Assembly (NCBI GenBank): GCA_001792345.1
Contig: MGGJ01000013.1
Span: 85,371 to 149,370, forward strand
Origin: Candidatus Woesebacteria bacterium RIFCSPHIGHO2_01_FULL_39_32
Lineage (GTDB): Bacteria > Patescibacteriota > Microgenomatia > UBA8517
Direction: 5' to 3'
DNA: 64,000 bases
The notes beneath the pieces were generated by a model, which did not search any database, was not told where the DNA came from, and worked only from the letters and a program-made list of their open reading frames with translations. Position 1 is the stretch's first letter. Each line of letters starts with the position of its first letter. Positions 7,847 through 43,535 of this stretch are shown here, piece after piece. A program made the translations under genes and the position numbers.

Positions 7847-7933
7847 TAATTAACTATGCGAAACAAACAACTTTTTTACAAGAACTAACAGGTTACCTGA
7901 GACAAAGGAATAGAGTCGAAGATGACATAACTT

Positions 7934-9311: not shown

Positions 9312-9947
9312 GTGATAAAGAAGCAACAAGAAATAAAAGCAATCATCTTTGATGTGGGTGGAGTAATTCTTGATCTTAATAAAAAGAAAACACTAAGAAT
9401 CCCAGAGTCAATATCTACAATATATGGCATTTCTATCGAGGAGGCTCGCAAAATCTGGGTCACTTATGATCGGAGAAGCCTACTGACTGGTGCTGAAACA
9501 CCCAAAACCTTTCTACGAAATATCTCACGAGCCATTGATACCAGTAAAACTCCAGAGACTCTTTACGAGGAATGGACTAAACTTAGTCTAAAAGAAGAGA
9601 ATTGTATTGATTGGAAGCTATTAGATTTTATCAAAAATTTAAGAGAGAAATACAAAATCTATGTTATGAGCAACGCAGTAAATATTGCCCAAGAAGACAA
9701 GTTAACACGGACGATTAAATCGATGTTTGACAAGTATTTTGTTTCCTATGAAGAGGGATTTAGAAAACCTGAGAAAGAGGCGTTTCTTAATGTTCTTAAA
9801 AAAATCGACTGCAATCCCGAAAATTGTATTTTCGTGGATGACACTTTAATAAACATCAATACAGCGAAAGAAATGAAAATCAACTCAATAATTTACAAGA
9901 GTCTGGAACAGCTTAAAAAAGATATTAAAGAAATAGTTGATAAATAA
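9312..9947 (+). CDS. HAD-superfamily hydrolase (subfamily IA-like)
   Basis: Motif I FDVGGV (DxG), followed by SNA and a DD motif (FVDDT). Confidence 0.7.
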   Translation: MIKKQQEIKAIIFDVGGVILDLNKKKTLRIPESISTIYGISIEEARKIWVTYDRRSLLTGAETPKTFLRNISRAIDTSKTPETLYEEWTKLSLKEENCIDWKLLDFIKNLREKYKIYVMSNAVNIAQEDKLTRTIKSMFDKYFVSYEEGFRKPEKEAFLNVLKKIDCNPENCIFVDDTLININTAKEMKINSIIYKSLEQLKKDIKEIVDK

Positions 9948-10174
9948 ATTTGATAAACAATTTCTTGGATAATGATATATTTTGATCTTAGAGAAAAAGT
10001 TATGACTTGTTATTAGTGGAATTAACTTATATAAATTTCATACTAAGGAGTGTGGTCTTATTTTTAAATTTAAACCCAAGCATGGAAAGTACTAAACAAG
10101 TTACTGTCTAAGAAGATAACAAACGAACCTTTTCCTCAAATAAATGCAGGCAACCAAACAGAAAAGTAATCACA

Positions 10175-10816
10175 TTACTCATCCTTGAATGCCTTTTGTG
10201 CACCTTTATATTCTTCTGGCGTATCAACATCCATCCATTTTGAATTAGGATTAACTTCTACAGTTCTAAATCTGGTTGTATTCGGTCCGACACCCCACCA
10301 TCTTATATTATCCAAGTCATCATAAATTTTTTTCAATCTTTCTTTATCAACAACTTCACATACTTCAGATCCAACCCCCTCTTCTTTAGAAAACTTGATA
10401 ATATAACCGTCTTTGATTACCAGTTTCATTGCCTCTGGATCAGTTGTTCGTAAATCTACCAAAGAAATACTTTCGCTTTTAAACGAATTAACTAATTTAG
10501 GAATTAAATCGTTACTTAAAAGCAGATCGGCATCTAGCATCACCGTATCTTCAAAGCCTATACGATCTAAGGCAACTTTTAGTGACCGTGCATTATCTGC
10601 TGTGTGATATAACGGATCATTTATTAAAACGACATCGGGAAGTTCCAAAAACTTTTCAGCTTTAAAACCAGTAACAACATATATCGGTTTTATTCCTGCA
10701 GATTTAAGTTGCCTAATAAGACGCCCAATAATAGTTTCTTCGTTTATTTTTAAAAGAGATTTGACTTTACCTTCAAACCTTGTCCCTTTACCTGCTGCTA
10801 AAATTATCGCTCTCAT
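10175..10816 (-). CDS. Sugar-phosphate/phospho-alcohol nucleotidyltransferase (LicC/MobA-like NTP-transferase fold)
   Basis: N-terminal MRAIILAAGKGTRF signature. ~213 aa with a C-terminal extension. Confidence 0.65.
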   Translation of the reverse strand: MRAIILAAGKGTRFEGKVKSLLKINEETIIGRLIRQLKSAGIKPIYVVTGFKAEKFLELPDVVLINDPLYHTADNARSLKVALDRIGFEDTVMLDADLLLSNDLIPKLVNSFKSESISLVDLRTTDPEAMKLVIKDGYIIKFSKEEGVGSEVCEVVDKERLKKIYDDLDNIRWWGVGPNTTRFRTVEVNPNSKWMDVDTPEEYKGAQKAFKDE

Positions 10817-12551: not shown

Positions 12552-13796
12552 ATGAAATTGGCATTTTTAGCTTATAATAGAGATCCTTCAATACCCGAAG
12601 TTGATAATGATGGTAACCCTGTAATTGTTAGAAATTATAGTTATTGGTTAGCTAAATACGGACACACAATTGATATTTTTGTAAATAAAGTAATTCCTAA
12701 CAATCTTAGCAACGAATATACTAGAAAAAAATATAATTTACAGAAAAAATCCCGATTAGAGCTTTTTCCTGGAGTTAAGGTGGTAAGAATAAAAACATCA
12801 GATTTAACTGCTAAAGAATTATTCAAGACCGTCGAGTTGCAGGAAATTCCAGAAATAACACAATCTGTTCTTTCTGCATCCTACTTTAAAACAACACTTC
12901 TATCTGATTACGATCTGGTCTGTATTTTCCACCCATTAACTGCTTTTGGAGTTATCTTTCGGGACCTGCTTCCCTTAAACAAAACTTTATTGTTCCCAAT
13001 GTTGCTAAGCGATGAGTATTTGAAATTTGGAAGTGTATCTCCTATTTACATCGATCTAGAACAAATGGTTTTAGAAAGCGTAAATAAAATATATAGTACA
13101 TCAAATGATGAAAAGAAAGTATTAGTCTCCAGAAACATACCACAAGAAAAAATTGAAGTAATTCGTAGAGGAATTGATATAAATACATTTCCCTATAAAC
13201 AAAAGGAATCCATAAGAGTTCGCAATGAAATTAATATAGTTACTGTCGGTTCTCTTCGTCCCCAAAAACGTCAGCATATTTTAGTAGAAGTTATTGAGAA
13301 TTTATTATCGAGAGGGCTTAAGGCAAAACTGCAAATTGTTGGTGAGAACAAATTTTTTACTAAAAAAGAGTATGAAGATTATTTCAACAGTATTAAGTCA
13401 GCAATTCTAAAAAAAGATTTGGAAGACTATATTGTTTTCGTTGGTGGAGTTGAACCTGATCAAGTAGGAGAGTTGCTAAATTCTGCAGACCTTGCAATAT
13501 TTCCTTCAATTTCAGAATCATTTGGCAAAGCTGCTTTGGAATCTATTTGTTCCGGAACACCTACCATAATTGCTAGTGAGTGCTCAGCTTATAAGGAATT
13601 TGCCCTTGATCAAGAAAATGCTATTTTCTCTTCAAGTAATTCAAAGGATATTACTAAAGCTGTATTAAATTTAATAAATAACGAAGAACGGTATCTTCAC
13701 TTATCTAAAAACGGATTAAAAACAAGGAAAGAATTTTCGTGGCAAAATGTATCAAAGATCCTTGAGACCTCACTTTTGAGATCGACCACATCCTAG
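12552..13796 (+). CDS. Glycosyltransferase family 4 (GT-B, group 1)
   Basis: C-terminal GT4 signature FPSISESFGKAALESICSGTPTIAS with an EX7E-like region. Confidence 0.8.
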   Translation: MKLAFLAYNRDPSIPEVDNDGNPVIVRNYSYWLAKYGHTIDIFVNKVIPNNLSNEYTRKKYNLQKKSRLELFPGVKVVRIKTSDLTAKELFKTVELQEIPEITQSVLSASYFKTTLLSDYDLVCIFHPLTAFGVIFRDLLPLNKTLLFPMLLSDEYLKFGSVSPIYIDLEQMVLESVNKIYSTSNDEKKVLVSRNIPQEKIEVIRRGIDINTFPYKQKESIRVRNEINIVTVGSLRPQKRQHILVEVIENLLSRGLKAKLQIVGENKFFTKKEYEDYFNSIKSAILKKDLEDYIVFVGGVEPDQVGELLNSADLAIFPSISESFGKAALESICSGTPTIIASECSAYKEFALDQENAIFSSSNSKDITKAVLNLINNEERYLHLSKNGLKTRKEFSWQNVSKILETSLLRSTTS

Positions 13797-20787: not shown

Positions 20788-21243
20788 GTGAAGATAATTA
20801 ACCCTTCGACTCTCAGGTCCCAAAAAAAGAGCACGCTCAGGGTTAATACTGAGCGAAGTCGAAGTATTAAAAAAGAATATCATATTTGGGTTCCACAATC
20901 CGAAGTTTGGAATGCTCTCGTTAACCCCGAAACAATCCAAAAATGGGGTGAGGGAAAAGCTAACATGAGCGAAAAAGTAGGTGTGAAATTTAGTCTTTGG
21001 GATGGCCAGATACATGGAACTAATTTGGAAGTAATACCTCAAAAAAAGTTGGTTCAGGAGTGGTATTCAAGTGACGATCCCGATCACGTAACAAAAGTTA
21101 CGTTTACCTTGACTCATAAAGACGGGTGCACTGCTTTATACCTGAAACACGAAGGTGTTCGTGAGAAAAATTACGACTCAATAGATAAAGGTTGGGATGA
21201 TTATTACTTAGGAGAAATTAAAAAATTACTGGAGAAAAAATAA
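20788..21243 (+). CDS. SRPBCC-fold protein, Activator-of-Hsp90-ATPase (AHSA1)-like
   Basis: Domain begins at EYHIWVPQSEVWNALVNPE. The first ~30 codons of the track ORF (GTG start) are encoded by a palindromic repeat element, so the true start is uncertain. Confidence 0.5.
   Translation: MKIINPSTLRSQKKSTLRVNTERSRSIKKEYHIWVPQSEVWNALVNPETIQKWGEGKANMSEKVGVKFSLWDGQIHGTNLEVIPQKKLVQEWYSSDDPDHVTKVTFTLTHKDGCTALYLKHEGVREKNYDSIDKGWDDYYLGEIKKLLEKK
20802..20864. repeat. Composite copy of a GC-rich palindromic element family (CCCTTCGACTCTCAGG ... CTGAGCGAAGTCGAAG)
   Basis: Inverted arms with a ~30-nt spacer. The 17-mer CTGAGCGAAGTCGAAG(G) recurs exactly at 24361-24377. Related copies lie at 7896-7921, 21963-21996, 22873-22900 and 42223-42243. 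Confidence 0.6.
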
Positions 21244-21245
21244 CT

Positions 21246-22331
21246 TCACAAATATTTCTGAAAAAACTCGACTGTGTTTTGCATCGCTTGGGAAAATGCT
21301 GAACCAGTTAAATTATGACCGCCCGAAGAATATTCATTCAATTCGTGCGGAATGCTAGTTTTATCTAATAAACTATCTAAATTTTTACTATATTCAATAC
21401 TCACAACGTTATCATTTACCGCATGGTTAAGTTGCACTGCTCCTTTTATATCCGAGAGATAATTTGTCGCAGGAACTTGTTTCCAAAACCAATGATCTGG
21501 ATTAAATGTGCCATAAGCATCACGAAGTTGCTGTCTTTTTTTAGCTCTTTCCGAATCAGGCGGTGGCGGCTGATAAGAAGTATCTTCTATCCGATACTCC
21601 TGTAAATCCTGGTATGTGTAGCCTGCGCCAGCCCAAATAACAACTGCAGGAATTTCTGGATTAGCTCCCAAAGCTCTAAAAACAACATTTCCTGCCATCG
21701 AATGGCCCCATAAACCAATTGCCCTTGGGTTTACAAAATCAGTATTTCTTAATGCGGCAATAGCGTTTAGTGTGTCAATAACATAATCGGACGAATAATA
21801 TCCTCCACCAGGTTCGCCTTCTGAATTCCCATGTCCGCGAAGGTCTATTTTAAAAACAACAAACCCGTTTTTTGCAAGATAGTCTACATAGGAATTGTAA
21901 TTTACAGTTGTTTGATAATTTTGGGGCGGAATGTAACCGTGTACGAAAATGATAGCTGGATACCTTCGACTATCACCCTGAGCGTTAGTCGAAGGGCTTT
22001 CCTTCGGTATAGTTAATAGCCCATAGACAGTCAGTCCATCAGAATCATAGCTAGTAACGTAAGAGGTATAAATTAGTGTTTCGTTTCCCTTTCGCATTTC
22101 TTCCAGATTACTTAGATAAGATCGTTTTCTTAAATAAGGAATAGTTAATTCTTGAAAAGCAAATGGAGTAGGTGTTGGCGAGGATAATGTTATTGCTTTA
22201 TTAACACCTTCTAAAACCGGCAGAATGACTTCTTTTTTATCACTCCGATTGAAAATGGCAAAGAAAAGAATTCCCAAACCAACTATTAGAATTAACAAAA
22301 TGGGTGTAAAACCTTGAATACTTTTTCTCAT
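21246..22331 (-). CDS. Membrane-anchored alpha/beta hydrolase (S9/dienelactone-hydrolase-like), paralog 1
   Basis: N-terminal TM. GxSxG nucleophile elbow GHSMAGNV. Acid and His likely near the C-terminus. Confidence 0.7.
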   Translation of the reverse strand: MRKSIQGFTPILLILIVGLGILFFAIFNRSDKKEVILPVLEGVNKAITLSSPTPTPFAFQELTIPYLRKRSYLSNLEEMRKGNETLIYTSYVTSYDSDGLTVYGLLTIPKESPSTNAQGDSRRYPAIIFVHGYIPPQNYQTTVNYNSYVDYLAKNGFVVFKIDLRGHGNSEGEPGGGYYSSDYVIDTLNAIAALRNTDFVNPRAIGLWGHSMAGNVVFRALGANPEIPAVVIWAGAGYTYQDLQEYRIEDTSYQPPPPDSERAKKRQQLRDAYGTFNPDHWFWKQVPATNYLSDIKGAVQLNHAVNDNVVSIEYSKNLDSLLDKTSIPHELNEYSSGGHNLTGSAFSQAMQNTVEFFQKYL

Positions 22332-22376
22332 TAATAAATACTACTAAATCCAATTTAATATTTGAAGTTTTGTAAG

Positions 22377-23468
22377 TTACTTAAGATTTTTGTTAAAAAA
22401 TTCAACAGATCGGGAAAGTGCAAGGGATAAGTTTTTACTAAGATTATGATCGTCACCCTCGTATATATAAAGTTCTACTTCTTTCCCTGCATCTTTCATT
22501 TGAGCTTCCAATGTTTTAGAGAATTCTAAGGGAACCGAAGTGTCTGCTGTTCCATGATGAAGCTGTAAAGGTCCAGAAATGTCGGCTAAATAAGAGTTGG
22601 GAGATATAGATTTCCAAAATTCTGGATTTTGATATGGATCTCCGTATTTTTCTATTAGTTCACGTCTCCATCTACCTCTCTGACTCATCGGGTTAATCGT
22701 GGGTGTTGGACCCAGTCTTTTCCTCCAGCGTTCAATCAAATCAGGGTAGCTCCCTACGACCCCTGCCCAGATGACACCGGCTTTAACATCCTTTGTAGTA
22801 ACCATTGCTTTTAGCGTAATCGAACCACCCATCGAATGTCCCCACATTCCAATCCGACTTGTGTCAACAAGTCGTCCTGAGCGACCTAAGGGAGTCGAAG
22901 GATCCTCCGAAAGGTCATTTAGCCTTTTAATAGAGGCGACGGCATTTAGTATGTCAATTGTATACGCATTTGATCCATAACCTCCTGTTGCATCTCCTTC
23001 AGAATTTCCATGCCCACGATAGTCGGATTTGAAAGTTACATAGCCTGCTCTGGCAAATGCATCCTGATACGCAACATATTTTTCGGTAGTTTTATAAATG
23101 GAAGGTGAAATGTAACCGTGATTGAAAATGATAGCTGGCCAACCTCCCACTGGCTGAGTTCCATTCGGTGCGGTTAATAAGCCATAAATTTTTAAGCCTT
23201 CGGATTTATATGAGGCAATATACCTTTTGTAGTTAGATCCTGCGCTTAGAGTTTGTTCGATAATAATATCGCTTCCTGGATATTCGCCTTCTCTGAGGGC
23301 TTGAATCGACAGTGGATGCGGCTCAACTTCTGGACCGCCTTCATTTTCTTGAACAACATTGTATATTATAGATTCCCTAACATCCTGATTTTTTGAAGAA
23401 TAAACATAAGCACTCACCCCCAATAAGATAAGAAGGAAAATTAGTACGAATTTGTTTTTTGTGACCAT
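22377..23468 (-). CDS. Membrane-anchored alpha/beta hydrolase, tandem paralog 2
   Basis: GHSMGGSIT. Colinear with paralog 1 along its length. Confidence 0.7.
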   Translation of the reverse strand: MVTKNKFVLIFLLILLGVSAYVYSSKNQDVRESIIYNVVQENEGGPEVEPHPLSIQALREGEYPGSDIIIEQTLSAGSNYKRYIASYKSEGLKIYGLLTAPNGTQPVGGWPAIIFNHGYISPSIYKTTEKYVAYQDAFARAGYVTFKSDYRGHGNSEGDATGGYGSNAYTIDILNAVASIKRLNDLSEDPSTPLGRSGRLVDTSRIGMWGHSMGGSITLKAMVTTKDVKAGVIWAGVVGSYPDLIERWRKRLGPTPTINPMSQRGRWRRELIEKYGDPYQNPEFWKSISPNSYLADISGPLQLHHGTADTSVPLEFSKTLEAQMKDAGKEVELYIYEGDDHNLSKNLSLALSRSVEFFNKNLK

Positions 23469-23487
23469 TGTTACATTTTACCCAAGG

Positions 23488-23550
23488 ATTTAAAAGTGTA
23501 AAGAAGGACGCACCAACTGGTGCGTCCCCCCTTGTGATAAGAAACAAACC
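23488..23550 (-). terminator. Hairpin terminator downstream of the CpxP-like gene
   Basis: GGACGCACC AACT GGTGCGTCC is a perfect 9-bp GC-rich stem. A T-rich tract follows on the minus strand. Confidence 0.45.
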
Positions 23551-24057
23551 TTAATTGTTTGTACCCATCATGTAACCTTTGTGGAATCCACGCATAAAGC
23601 CGCGACCGAAAGGTCCCAAAAGCGGTAGATCTATCCCCGGCCCTTCTGCCCAGGTTTTAAATTCATCATGAAGAGCATGCATCTTCTCATGTCTTTCTTC
23701 CACATTCAAATCTTTCCACTCTTCCATTTTGTTGTGCATCTCTTCGTGTTTATCTAAAATTACCTGCTTTTGTTCGGCTGTTATTTTCCCATCATTTACA
23801 AGATCGTCTAACCTTTCAGACCACCTTGCTTGCATTTCTGCATAATGTTCTTCTCTATCTTCTACAAAAACTGCCTGTACATCAGCCTCATTTAAATTAA
23901 ACTTCTCGGCAATCTTTTGAACAATCGATGGATAGTCGTCGGAATCTTGTGCCGAAGCAACCGAAACGCTTAATAATCCAACTAGAATTACTCCTAAAAC
24001 TAACATTGTGGGAAAAATTACTTTCTTTACCTTTTTACTCATATATCTCACCACCAA
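23551..24057 (-). CDS. Secreted helical protein, possibly CpxP/Spy-like periplasmic stress protein
   Basis: Signal peptide. An LTxxQ-like segment (ITAEQKQVI). Lies immediately downstream of the two-component system. Confidence 0.35.
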   Translation of the reverse strand: MVVRYMSKKVKKVIFPTMLVLGVILVGLLSVSVASAQDSDDYPSIVQKIAEKFNLNEADVQAVFVEDREEHYAEMQARWSERLDDLVNDGKITAEQKQVILDKHEEMHNKMEEWKDLNVEERHEKMHALHDEFKTWAEGPGIDLPLLGPFGRGFMRGFHKGYMMGTNN

Positions 24058-24106
24058 TCTAATTCTCTAATACCTTAACTAATAAACCTGAAAAAACGCT
24101 GAAGAA

Positions 24107-25177
24107 TCAGGCGGGAAGAATAACTTTAAATGTGGAACCTTTACCTACTTCGCTTTTAACTTTAATTTCTCCTTTGTGTACATCAACAATTGACTTAGCA
24201 ATTGAAAGGCCGAGGCCGTAGCCATCTATTTTGGCTTTACTTCTTGAAGAATCGGCTCTGTAAAAGCGATCGAAAATGTGAAGAATATCTTTTTCTGCAA
24301 TTCCAACTCCTTCATCTTTAACCTCGATCACAGCATTTTTTCTCAAACCCCTTAGTTGTCCTGAGCGAAGTCGAAGGACTCTTACTCTTACTTCTGATTT
24401 CTCTGGAGAATATTTAACTGCATTATTAATCAGAATTGAGATAAGTTCTACCAAACTTTGCGGGTTACCATTTACAACAACTTCTGACAAATCATCTTTA
24501 ATCGTAATCTTTTTCTCTACAGCCACCGGCATATTTCTTTCAATCGCTTGCCGAGAAGCTTCTACAAGATCAACCTCTTCCGTTAGTAAATTATTTCCGT
24601 TTGTTTCATAACGAGACAAAGATAAAAGGTTGTCTGTAAAATATTTCATTTTATCTACTTCGGCTAAATTACTTTTTAATAAGTCTTTTGCGTCTTTTAA
24701 AATTAATTTTTTGTCACGAAGAGCTACTTCTACCTCGGTTTTCATCGATGCTAAAGGTGTGCGAAGTTCGTGAGAAGCATCTGCAACAAATCTCTTTTGT
24801 TCTTCAACCATTACTTCAATAGGGGCAAGTGTCTTTCCAGCCAAAAAATATCCTGAAGTTCCAGCTAGAATTAAAATTCCTCCGTTTATTATTAATAGCT
24901 GTAAAGCAAACCTACGTTTGGCGAGATTTATAATTTCAATAAATTCCTCGGGAGGAAGTTCGTCCGGGTAAATTAAAAAGGGTAAAATTCGAAAAAATCC
25001 GTTTCGCTCTTGAACAACTATTCTTTGCTGTGCGGCGCCTCGAAGCGCCTGCATATGAAATCCACGCCCAAGTTCTTTCGTAAAACCTCGGTAAACAATC
25101 AGACTAAAAAACCCGCTTACTATCATAATAATAAGCAGGTACCAGAGAGTTAATTTAATTCGAGCGTTTTCAAACAT
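24107..25177 (-). CDS. Sensor histidine kinase (HisKA + HATPase_c)
   Basis: Two TM segments, H-box ASHELRTPLASM, and N, G1 (VKDEGVGI) and G2 boxes. Confidence 0.85.
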   Translation of the reverse strand: MFENARIKLTLWYLLIIMIVSGFFSLIVYRGFTKELGRGFHMQALRGAAQQRIVVQERNGFFRILPFLIYPDELPPEEFIEIINLAKRRFALQLLIINGGILILAGTSGYFLAGKTLAPIEVMVEEQKRFVADASHELRTPLASMKTEVEVALRDKKLILKDAKDLLKSNLAEVDKMKYFTDNLLSLSRYETNGNNLLTEEVDLVEASRQAIERNMPVAVEKKITIKDDLSEVVVNGNPQSLVELISILINNAVKYSPEKSEVRVRVLRLRSGQLRGLRKNAVIEVKDEGVGIAEKDILHIFDRFYRADSSRSKAKIDGYGLGLSIAKSIVDVHKGEIKVKSEVGKGSTFKVILPA

Positions 25178-41812: not shown

Positions 41813-42128
41813 TTACCGCTTCGTGCTTATCCGGAACCACAAGCACGCATTCGTGCTCATCGTCAGGCACACCCAATGTTAAAACTTCTGACTTAAAAGG
41901 TCCAATTTGTTTTTCAGGAAAGTTAACCACTCCCAGAATCTTTTTGCCCTCTAAATCTTCTTTTTTATAATATTTAACAAGTTGGGCGCTAGATTTTTTG
42001 ATACCAATTTCAGAGCCAAAATCAATTGTCAGTATATATGAAGGCTTCCTTGCTTCAGGGAAATCTTCAACCCCAACAATCTTTCCGACTCTTATATCTA
42101 GCTTTAAAAAATCGTCATAAGTTACCAT
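41793..42128 (-). CDS. Stand-alone tRNA-binding domain protein (CsaA/Trbp111-like)
   Basis: FLKLDIRVGKIV and an OB-fold tRNA-binding (Myf) domain signature. Confidence 0.7.
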   Translation of the reverse strand: MVTYDDFLKLDIRVGKIVGVEDFPEARKPSYILTIDFGSEIGIKKSSAQLVKYYKKEDLEGKKILGVVNFPEKQIGPFKSEVLTLGVPDDEHECVLVVPDKHEAVIGGKLY

Positions 42129-42174
42129 TAATTATTCACCTTCCTTCATTATTACATTTATTGTTGACCAATAA

Positions 42175-42430
42175 AAAAAGCCCTTGCAAACCAATAAACT
42201 CCCAATTATTAGTTCACAAGGGCCCTTCGACTTTGCTCAGGACTGTACCACCTTGTTCTTGTTACTCCATCGCTAAAGTAACCTTACTAGCTGGCTCCAA
42301 TAGTTATCGACACCAGCGTCTCTATTTTACGGTAGGGCTTCCGTACTGCTCGTCGCAGTCTGCTCATTTGGCGGGAAACCAAATTCTAACGCTTTATTTA
42401 ATTGTTAATAGAAAAAGTATAACAGAAATA
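42175..42430 (-). ncRNA. Candidate structured small RNA or leader (unassigned class) in an unusually long GC-richer gap
   Basis: A 300-bp non-coding gap in a tightly packed region. It appears GC-richer than its surroundings. At its minus-strand 3' end is a hairpin GCCCTTG..CAAGGGC followed by TTTTTTT. It contains one copy of the CCTTCGACT..GCTCAGGAC palindromic element. Confidence 0.25.
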
Positions 42431-42434
42431 TCGT

Positions 42435-43535
42435 TTATTTCAACACTGTCTCAATATATCCAGCAATTCCACCACCTGTAACAAGTTTTTGAATGTCATG
42501 CGCAGTTACCGCCAAGATAAGTAGTATCAAAATAATCATACCCACAGTGTGAACTAAGTGTTCAACCCTCGGAACAACTTTCCTGCCAAATAGGGATTCG
42601 ATTGCTATAAAAAGAAGTCTTCCACCATCAAGGGCCGGGAATGGCATGGCGTTAAGTATCGCAAGATTAACCGAAAGAACGCCTAAGAAATTAATTAACG
42701 ATAAGGCTCCGAACTTTGCAGCTTGAGAGGTTAGTGCAAAAATACCTACAGGACCCGCCACGTCTTTAGGTACAACCCCGATAAATAAATCTTTAAATAT
42801 TTGGAAAAATCCCGTTAAGACAATCTGGCCCCAAAAGATTGCTTCCTTGAAACCATAATAGACTCCGATAAAAGGCCGCTGCCAAATTGGGGGGTAATAA
42901 AGTTCGATGTTGCTAATTAAAACTCCCAATGCCCCTTCCCCCTCTGGAGGATCGGAACGTGGAATTGCTTTAAAGCTCCTAGTTTCCCCGTCTCTTAAAA
43001 TAGTAATTGAAATTTCTTCTCCCTGTTTCTCGTCCACCAAGCTAATAAGATCACTGTTGGATTTGATAGTCTTCCCATTGATATCCTTGACTATATCGGC
43101 CACTTTAAGACCTGATATATCTGCGGGTGAACCTTCTCTTATCTCTATAACATGAACGTTTTCAGATTCCCGAGGAATTCCTGAAAACGAATATACAATC
43201 GAAAAGGCAAAAATTGCTAGAGCAAAATTCATAAAAACACCCGCCAAGATAATAACTAGTCTTTGAAATTTTCCTTTATGAAGAAATGCTCTATCTGAGT
43301 TGGTAATTTCTTCTTCGGTATTTTCTCCGTGAAGTCTAACAAATCCTCCGAAAGGCAAAAGATTAATGGAATATATAGTTTCACCAATCTTTTTTCCCAA
43401 TACTCTCGGAGGTAGCCCAAAGCCAAATTCCTCAACCCAAACCCCAGCTCTACGGGAAGCTATGAAATGCCCAAACTCGTGAACAAGAACAAGAATCGAT
43501 AATACTATTAAAAAAGTAAGTACCGAAATAAGCAT
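42435..43535 (-). CDS. rseP: Site-2 protease RseP (M50) with PDZ
   Basis: HEFGH zinc motif in TM1, an internal PDZ, and the LDGG motif. Confidence 0.8.
   Translation of the reverse strand: MLISVLTFLIVLSILVLVHEFGHFIASRRAGVWVEEFGFGLPPRVLGKKIGETIYSINLLPFGGFVRLHGENTEEEITNSDRAFLHKGKFQRLVIILAGVFMNFALAIFAFSIVYSFSGIPRESENVHVIEIREGSPADISGLKVADIVKDINGKTIKSNSDLISLVDEKQGEEISITILRDGETRSFKAIPRSDPPEGEGALGVLISNIELYYPPIWQRPFIGVYYGFKEAIFWGQIVLTGFFQIFKDLFIGVVPKDVAGPVGIFALTSQAAKFGALSLINFLGVLSVNLAILNAMPFPALDGGRLLFIAIESLFGRKVVPRVEHLVHTVGMIILILLILAVTAHDIQKLVTGGGIAGYIETVLK

Follow-up and report, generated by a model that had tools for sequence, protein, structure and literature searches.

A short GC-rich motif recurs in a 64,000-nucleotide stretch of the genome of Candidatus Woesebacteria bacterium RIFCSPHIGHO2_01_FULL_39_32 (contig MGGJ01000013.1, positions 85,371 to 149,370; the whole stretch is hereafter termed the window), where several of its copies lie in frame within protein-coding genes. 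These copies are probably non-autonomous solo units of a pan-bacterial, Ssn-like family of repeats of the repetitive extragenic palindromic (REP)/NTS type, and the motif most likely constitutes a new sequence class of a published repeat-plus-nuclease system rather than a speciality of the Candidate Phyla Radiation (CPR). Intragenic copies appear as insertions relative to orthologs, a single protein loop has been hit recurrently in both orientations, the motif is spread across phyla, and in other genomes it is linked to Ssn-like GIY-YIG nuclease genes. Over evolutionary time, units have been gained at new sites and in both orientations.

The window, from a member of the Woesebacteria (CPR, Microgenomates) of Rifle groundwater, has a GC content of 32-41% and encodes an ordinary set of housekeeping genes, among which no transposase, reverse transcriptase or nuclease gene was detected. 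In the window, the core of the motif reads CCTTCGAC-N(3-11)-GCTCAGG(A/G)C. Its first half, CCTTCGAC, occurs nine times, versus 1.2 expected occurrences. The loose pattern CTTCGAC-N(0-14)-CTCAGG was found six times and the looser TTCGAC-N(0-14)-CTCAG seven times, while Markov simulations placed the chance level for such loose patterns at ∼0.3, with a maximum of 3. A motif profile, trained on 218 copies from unrelated genomes only and then run on the window, recovered five copies, two with strong and three with weaker scores (Table 1). The repeated motif is thus a confirmed feature of the window, with five solid copies, three of them intragenic and in frame. The initial annotation had reported recurrence at six or more loci, which holds for the loose matches, although the locus at 7896-7921 is doubtful: it scored a profile E value of 28, carries half of the motif with a 14-nt spacer, shows no fold, and was rejected as a reliable copy. 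The 17-mer said to be shared at 20849 and 24361 is in fact a 16-mer (20849-20864 is identical to 24361-24376), as the 17th base differs.

Comparison of the host genes with their orthologs supports the view that the intragenic copies are insertions of a DNA-level element in which the reading frame was kept. All three were reported to be in frame and to encode particular peptides, the kinase copy to lie between the N and G1 boxes, and the two hydrolase paralogs to carry their insertions at different positions; each of these statements proved correct, as did the expectation that indels would coincide with the element. In a codon alignment with orthologs L299 and L301 (∼79% identity), the kinase gene of the window contains exactly 24 additional nucleotides, seen as a clean gap in the orthologs, and no target duplication accompanies them. 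In the sister genome L300, the kinase gene instead bears a reversed copy of 27 nt (GCCCTGAGCTTGTCGAAGGG), located eight codons upstream of the site used in the window, and more kinase homologs contain other inserts inside the same stretch of 20 residues. The ∼45-nt insertion in hydrolase 2 is present in a diverged form in L300, a syntenic Woesebacteria genome, while the 45 nt are absent from the syntenic L301. The sets of occupied sites in these three genomes (the window, L300 and L301) all differ.

The loop of hydrolase 1 provides the richest record. About 60 of 80 orthologs have a short basal loop of nine residues (KGEKPxxGW), while about a quarter carry inserts. At the DNA level, the inserts were observed in forward (CCTTCGACTAATGCTCAGG, in L227), reverse (CCTGAGCCTGTCGAAGG, in L245), doubled (L222) and decayed states, and they comprise at least five types, in both orientations and in different frames. 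The occurrence of two orientations with different junctions indicates several independent insertion events. In a weak neighbour-joining tree, the insert-bearing sequences were scattered among the insert-free ones.

The suggestion that the insertion positions be mapped onto structures was followed with AlphaFold models, in which two of the insertions, those of hydrolase 1 and the kinase, appear to sit in low-confidence loops or turns between β-strands. In hydrolase 1, the insert falls within loop 110-123 between two strands (pLDDT, the confidence score of the model, <50 at residues 116-120), and in the kinase it lies in the turn between strands 262-270 and 281-287 (pLDDT <50 at 274-277). The site in hydrolase 2 is the equivalent of the short loop that precedes the nucleophile strand in the hydrolase 1 model. 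The three coding copies would persist because their length is a multiple of three and because the surface turns that they occupy are permissive.

Flanking direct and inverted repeats were enriched overall, yet they are absent at 80% or more of the copies, and tandem arrays explain part of the enrichment. Target-site duplication was rejected, none being present at the kinase insertion. With its 24 nt and no duplication, the kinase insertion also falls outside the definition of miniature inverted-repeat transposable elements (a length of 70-300 bp, terminal inverted repeats and target-site duplication). The element had been likened to the Rickettsia palindromic elements, and its behavior indeed resembles theirs, in that both are DNA-level elements read in different frames, which are inserted in frame into unrelated genes at tolerated positions. 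The likeness does not extend to identity: the Rickettsia elements are clear palindromes of 100-150 bp that are restricted to Rickettsia and its relatives, whereas the present copies measure 24-60 nt (the unit 24 nt, the composite form at most ∼62 nt), the unit is not a stable palindrome and its distribution is cross-phylum.

Sequence collections were scanned with the exact pattern CCTTCGACNNNGCTCAGGAC, whose 17 fixed bases leave the internal variation of the unit under-sampled. Matches were found in 92 stretches of viral contigs from IMG/VR; among species-representative genomes, at least 120 stretches matched, and these belong to more than 10 phyla, cultured isolates included. The hosts comprise Alpha-, Beta-, Gamma- and Deltaproteobacteria, Nitrospirota, Verrucomicrobiota, Chloroflexota, Acidobacteriota, Armatimonadota, Planctomycetota, Cyanobacteria, Methylobacter, Patescibacteria and Bacteroidota (including cultured Leeuwenhoekiella, Flavobacterium and Pedobacter), and the GC content of the motif-bearing loci ranges from 34 to 74%. 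Given this spread over phyla and viral contigs, the element is not specific to the CPR, and the earlier idea of a new selfish family of CPR type cannot be upheld. Across the family, the unit is ∼24 nt long, with the core CCTTCGAC-N(2-4)-GCTCAGG(A/G)C and a tail of either AGGC or GAACGG; in extended form, the consensus reads Y-CCTTCGAC-(mostly TTC)-GCTCAGGAC-AGGC, with GAACGG as the alternative tail. Among the low-GC loci, 25 of 41 copies were intergenic. Copies were arranged as inverted doublets, as tandem arrays, in a longer hairpin form (CCTTCGAC ... GTCGAAGG) and at the tips of locus-specific hairpins. Their numbers vary from 13-27 per replicon in Sphingomonas parapaucimobilis to five in ∼267 kb of related Microgenomates DNA, and none of 5,426 complete genomes of E. 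coli carried a copy.

Outside the window, inverted copies of the motif family bracket small GIY-YIG genes. About five such nuclease loci were read at the DNA level. A 106-aa GIY-YIG gene of Sphingomonas (L305) has an inverted doublet upstream, in which the 16-mer of the window is contained, and its last codons (...RALRLRSGRTRE) are those of a forward copy. The 99-aa GIY-YIG gene of L160 is preceded, at 31 nt from its ATG, by a degenerate forward copy and has a perfect reverse copy at its 3' end; in L311 (Gottesmanbacteria) and L313 (Microgenomates), the inverted copies occupy the 3' end and a position 24-29 nt ahead of the ATG. Among the 120 best homologs of the L160 nuclease, many of which derive from Levybacteria, Gottesmanbacteria, Curtissbacteria and other Microgenomates, 98 have the C-terminal sequence G(I/Y)NxCTE(F/L)(A/V)E, which the reverse copy encodes. 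In 20 of the 120, annotated N-terminal extensions read through the upstream copy in three different frames (HFGKLSAS, ALRQAQCK and TSASSVQA), which indicates that the DNA is conserved rather than a peptide. The L160 nuclease shares 40% identity (E 2e-14) with that of L016, whose gene is flanked by canonical SRM repeats, and the nearest solved structures are those of UPF0213 proteins.

Some of these genes are associated with tRNA genes. The cassette of L313 (repeat, GIY-YIG gene, repeat; 9953-10326) is situated at the 3' end of a tRNA-Tyr gene, within 9869-10343, and lies between two 17-nt copies of the tRNA end (AATCCTTCCCTCTGGAC), which form a direct repeat. The GIY-YIG genes of L306 and L108 directly follow tRNA-Gln and tRNA-Met, respectively. 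In several GIY-YIG homologs, the N-terminal sequence GSNP represents read-through of a tRNA T-arm.

Flanking repeats of other types were also observed. A Planktothrix GIY-YIG gene is flanked by TGTCATTCTGAGTGAAACGAAGAATC, which resembles the reverse complement of the unit (GTCCTGAGCGAAGTCGAAGGAC), and a Methylobacterium GIY-YIG gene by inverted repeats of ∼50 nt with the skeleton CCTTCGA ... CCTCAGGA. A search of plasmids with the CPR-type nuclease domain returned nothing at E 1e-6 (tblastn), while the same search with the Sphingomonas protein added three loci: L315 lacks the motif, L316 carries a variant with a long spacer, and L317 has a related but different repeat. In L311 (8370-10288), a stretch of 2 kb contains two small GIY-YIG genes that differ from each other, together with an HNH nuclease gene, and a solo copy of the unit (12860-12881) is found 2.5 kb from this nuclease cluster. 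In L016 (13400-13960), a GIY-YIG gene has CGTCATTCCCGCGAAAGCGGGAACCCAG on both sides, a CGTC-type REP that fits the published SRM consensus. This locus agrees with Chenal et al. 2025 (Nat Commun, PMC11893778), and its nuclease is the dedicated one that had been "missing" for the CGTC REPs described by Di Nocera 2013.

The published system provides the closest parallel. Ssn proteins consist of a single GIY-YIG nuclease domain (∼94 aa) and cut single-stranded DNA beside hairpin repeats, termed NTS or SRM, and these repeats both flank the Ssn gene and are dispersed in the genome, an architecture that the authors liken to an insertion sequence (PMC11893778). The present element, which had been proposed as a new selfish family, is accordingly not a wholly new kind: its dispersed repeats also flank, in inverted orientation, a single-domain GIY-YIG gene of ∼95 aa (L305, L160, L311 and L313), its distribution across phyla is similarly wide, and the reverse complement of the unit, TGTC-CTGAGCGAAGTCGAAGG-(G/A)C, resembles the layout of tag, hairpin and C. 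The two differ in structure and in genomic context. Repeats of the Ssn system are inverted repeats of 20-50 nt that form a hairpin, whereas the present unit, taken alone, has a stem of at most 5 bp and a 12-nt loop, although its composite copies fold well; and three of the five solid copies in the window are intragenic, as against 2% for NTS in N. meningitidis. The SRM search consensus, HGTCWYN(0-2)YYVSBRHN(0-5)WNVSBRGN(0-2)RNCYNB, matched both flanks of the L016 gene, which served as positive control, and found no match in the window, in the consensus of the motif or in the flanks of L305. The nuclease flanking, together with this mismatch, argues for Ssn-related behavior in a distinct sequence class. 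Full-text literature searches with the motif words and the encoded peptides yielded unrelated primer matches only.

Folding as single-stranded DNA divides the copies into two kinds. The composite (20798-20868, -13.8 kcal/mol, z -4.8) and the hydrolase 1 copy (21958-22000, -10.5 kcal/mol, z -4.7) form significant hairpins, because each has an extra inverted arm. The three solo units gave no significant hairpin (kinase, z -0.7; hydrolase 2, z 0.05; 42217-42250, z +1.8) and form at best a 5-bp stem (GTCCT/AGGAC) with a 12-nt loop. The description of the elements as palindromic therefore applies to the first two copies and not to the solo units.

A cycle of the following kind could account for the spread of the units. 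A cognate Ssn-like nuclease would recognize the unit in single-stranded DNA, either at replication forks or in incoming DNA; host repair or replication would then copy a unit from another site, in trans; and selection would purge coding insertions, save those that are in frame and in tolerant loops.

Several points weigh against assigning the window copies to an Ssn-like family. GIY-YIG nucleases cleave DNA but do not ligate it. No GIY-YIG gene was found in the window or in the ∼100 kb of the Woesebacteria genome examined, and only one of ∼210 motif-bearing loci has an adjacent GIY-YIG gene. No neighboring gene recurs: in all-against-all clustering of the open reading frames within 2 kb of ∼210 copies, clusters spanned at most seven loci, and the seven-locus cluster represents related phage-like contigs. 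The copies that flank the CPR nucleases (CTTCGGCAAGCTCARTGC) have diverged from the unit of the window, such that the strict profile does not score them. The solo unit forms no significant hairpin, whereas recognition by SsnA requires one, and the failure of the SRM consensus noted above belongs here as well. Finally, the tree that suggests independent gains was built by neighbour joining only, from proteins 57-72% identical to the query.

A bolder version of the nuclease connection, which we consider possible but clearly the less probable, would regard the 24-nt unit and the repeat/GIY-YIG/repeat cassettes of ∼370-400 bp as an unrecognized, pan-bacterial class of GIY-YIG mobile elements. Its autonomous form would integrate at the 3' ends of tRNA genes with a 17-nt duplication, solo units would be copied in trans, and the same surface loops of host proteins would be remodeled repeatedly, in both orientations. 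If this were true, the variation of loop length in CPR proteins would be partly driven by the element.

The main rival to the assignment to an Ssn-like repeat family reverses the relationship, with the motif as the preferred target of homing GIY-YIG cassettes rather than their cargo, and with a nuclease-independent spread of the motif by template switching or gene conversion at replication, combined with horizontal transfer. The orientation of the copies around the gene, which is reverse ... forward in Sphingomonas and forward ... reverse in the CPR, speaks for it, as do the intact doublet upstream of the L305 gene, the absence of target duplication in the kinase, the distance of most solo copies from any GIY-YIG gene, and the basal hydrolase loops, which often read CCTTCAGG or CCTTCCGG and thus offer microhomology with the ends of the unit. 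Spread without a nuclease, however, does not explain a near-identical sequence across phyla with a GC content of 34-74%. The right-hand copy lies within the nuclease reading frame in 98 of the 120 homologs of the CPR clade, which points to long co-evolution rather than chance landing, and SsnA proteins cut beside their own flanking repeats (PMC11893778). On balance, this rival is judged unlikely.

Much less probable is that the copies are ordinary REP or REPIN elements moved by RAYT, a HUH tyrosine transposase of the IS200/IS605 type. REPs are 20-40-nt repeats that appear as singletons, inverted dimers and clusters; the size of the present unit and its inverted doublets (20803-20864 and that of L305) fit this description, a dedicated small nuclease gene flanked by repeats is common to both systems, and some copies lie in the loop of GTAG-type hairpins (e.g., L035). 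Intragenic copies are also on record among the GTAG- and CGTC-tagged REPs (Di Nocera 2013, PMC3733652). REP families are lineage-specific, however, whereas the present sequence is cross-phylum; its consensus, Y-CCTTCGAC-NNN-GCTCAGGAC-AGGC, lacks the GTAG tag, and no transposase occurs in the window or recurs in the clusters of open reading frames around the ∼210 loci. The kinase copy and the reverse-complement consensus both contain TGTC, which is accepted as a variant of the CGTC tag; CGTC REPs nonetheless have stems of 8-9 bp that start with AT and loops of 4-5 nt, neither of which is found in the present unit. An analogy is provided by the mobile GC clusters of yeast mitochondrial genomes, which are likewise short and GC-rich in AT-rich surroundings and enter coding sequence too, but these are organellar, unrelated in sequence and without a nuclease partner.

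Marginally weaker still is the proposal that the motif is a functional, immobile cis-element that selection maintains, for example a terminator, a processing signal or a binding site at the RNA or DNA level. Copies do occur at hairpin tips or beside terminators or known RNAs (42221-42244, L155 and, next to Flavo-1, L125), and flanking inverted repeats of at least 8 nt are enriched (7.0% versus 1.5%). Against this stand the coding copies, which occupy all three frames and both orientations in unrelated proteins and coincide with lineage-specific indels, as well as the inconsistent gene context and the lack of any Rfam family in the window at the gathering threshold. A permissive Rfam scan of 42050-42500 gave only chance miRNA-like matches, and ARAGORN, applied to the whole window, detected no tRNA.

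An assembly or sequencing artefact, for which only the break of one contig (L005) at a copy could be invoked, can practically be dismissed, as closed chromosomes and cultured isolates carry the motif as well, the reading frames are intact, and other independent assemblies from NCBI, JGI and Logan match a 7-kb stretch of the window with an identity of 100% in five cases and 99.8% in a sixth (GCA_000995445.1, GCA_001791885.1, JGI metagenome contigs and a Logan contig). Contig L005 (ENA ERZ27254846, k141_1024596) follows the window with 100% identity until the 20849-20864 copy ends on its outer side, diverging at 20864/20865 of the window (its own junction 4467/4468), beyond which 192 nt of unrelated sequence extend to the contig end. 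This may equally be a strain rearrangement at the element or a chimera at the contig end, and it provides no more than a hint of the recombination hotspot that had been suggested.

Table 1. Copies of the repeat in the window and their host genes, with the matches of the motif profile (numbering from the first nucleotide of the window).
Feature	Position	Strand	Sequence or product	Profile match
24-nt unit in histidine kinase gene	24354..24377	-	CCTTCGACTTCGCTCAGGACAACT; encodes LRLRSGQL; defined by codon alignment	24356-24380, E 4e-8
HisKA/HATPase_c sensor histidine kinase, host gene	24107..25177	-
∼45-nt in-frame insertion in alpha/beta hydrolase 2	22869..22913	-	CCTTCGAC-TCCCTTAGGTC-GCTCAGGAC; encodes LSEDPSTPLGRSGRL	22873-22904, E 6e-3
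Alpha/beta hydrolase 2 (Peptidase_S9/S15 type), host gene	22377..23468	-
Hairpin-type copy in alpha/beta hydrolase 1	21963..21995	-	CCTTCGAC-TAAC-GCTCAGG-GTGATA-GTCGAAGG; encodes PSTNAQGDSRR	21977-21998, E 0.08
Alpha/beta hydrolase 1, host gene	21246..22331	-
REPIN-like composite of inverted units	20803..20864	.	CCTTCGACTCTCAGG ... CGCTCAGG-gttaata-CTGAGCGAAGTCGAAG	20849-20864, E 3e-3
Solo unit, intergenic	42221..42244	+	CCCTTCGACTTTGCTCAGGACTGT	42221-42244, E 4e-7
Degenerate intergenic match, doubtful	7896..7921	-	CTTCGAC, 14 nt, CTCAGG; loose pattern only	E 28

The composite is located at the 5' end of, or upstream of, an AHSA1-family gene, the start of which is called differently in different assemblies (151, 125 or 92 aa). 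The intergenic solo unit, read on the minus strand, adjoins a terminator-like hairpin 3' of an M50 protease gene. This hairpin (∼42175-42228, minus strand) directly follows the repeat unit. The gene-free spacer of 306 nt between the M50 protease gene and a gene for a tRNA-binding domain (42129-42434), which matches no Rfam family, could be the site of an unrecognized small RNA.

The most fitting place for the element is among the REP/NTS-type repeats that are tied to small GIY-YIG nucleases, as a new sequence variant in which in-frame insertions into loops are unusually frequent and recurrent. The peptides LRLRSGQ, FDFAQD, PSTSLR, VLSEVEG and FDKLRANG, which recur in proteins predicted from metagenomes, are translations of one DNA repeat, and in small CPR genomes this repeat actively gives rise to loop insertions in real enzymes and sensors. 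The Ssn/NTS system (2025) would gain a second, non-canonical sequence class, whose unit is barely a hairpin and in which coding contexts are tolerated. As Ssn enzymes are under development as site-specific cutters of single-stranded DNA, a new class of specificity could be useful. For annotation, the consequence is that gene callers read through the repeat and adjacent tRNAs, which generates false N-terminal extensions and spurious hypothetical proteins. Spurious extensions of 20-45 aa were seen in GIY-YIG homologs (ids in P0258-P0356), and the AHSA1-family gene presents a similar case (region 20788-20880 of the window).

A variant of the unit, GCTCAGGACGAACGG, is present in L128, L132, L136, L163, L197 and L211. 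It shares 14 bases with the 5' end of 16S rRNA (GGCTCAGGACGAACGCTGG), which the variant GCTCAGGACGAACG also resembles. The similarity is probably fortuitous, since in many copies a CCGTTC located upstream pairs with GAACGG.

Head-to-tail arrays were observed in an alphaproteobacterial metagenome-assembled genome (L107, 358-425), with a period of 24 nt, and in one of the Dehalococcoidia (L117, 1118-1457), with a period of ∼27 nt; their translations are repeats of PFDFAQD(R/M) or PFDKLRVSG. In Leeuwenhoekiella aestuarii (L110, 6146-6449), one copy lies within a match to a group II intron (RF02001) and a second copy 35 nt past its end, and in Flavobacterium sp. 270 (L125, 1965-2072) a copy directly follows the Flavo-1 RNA.

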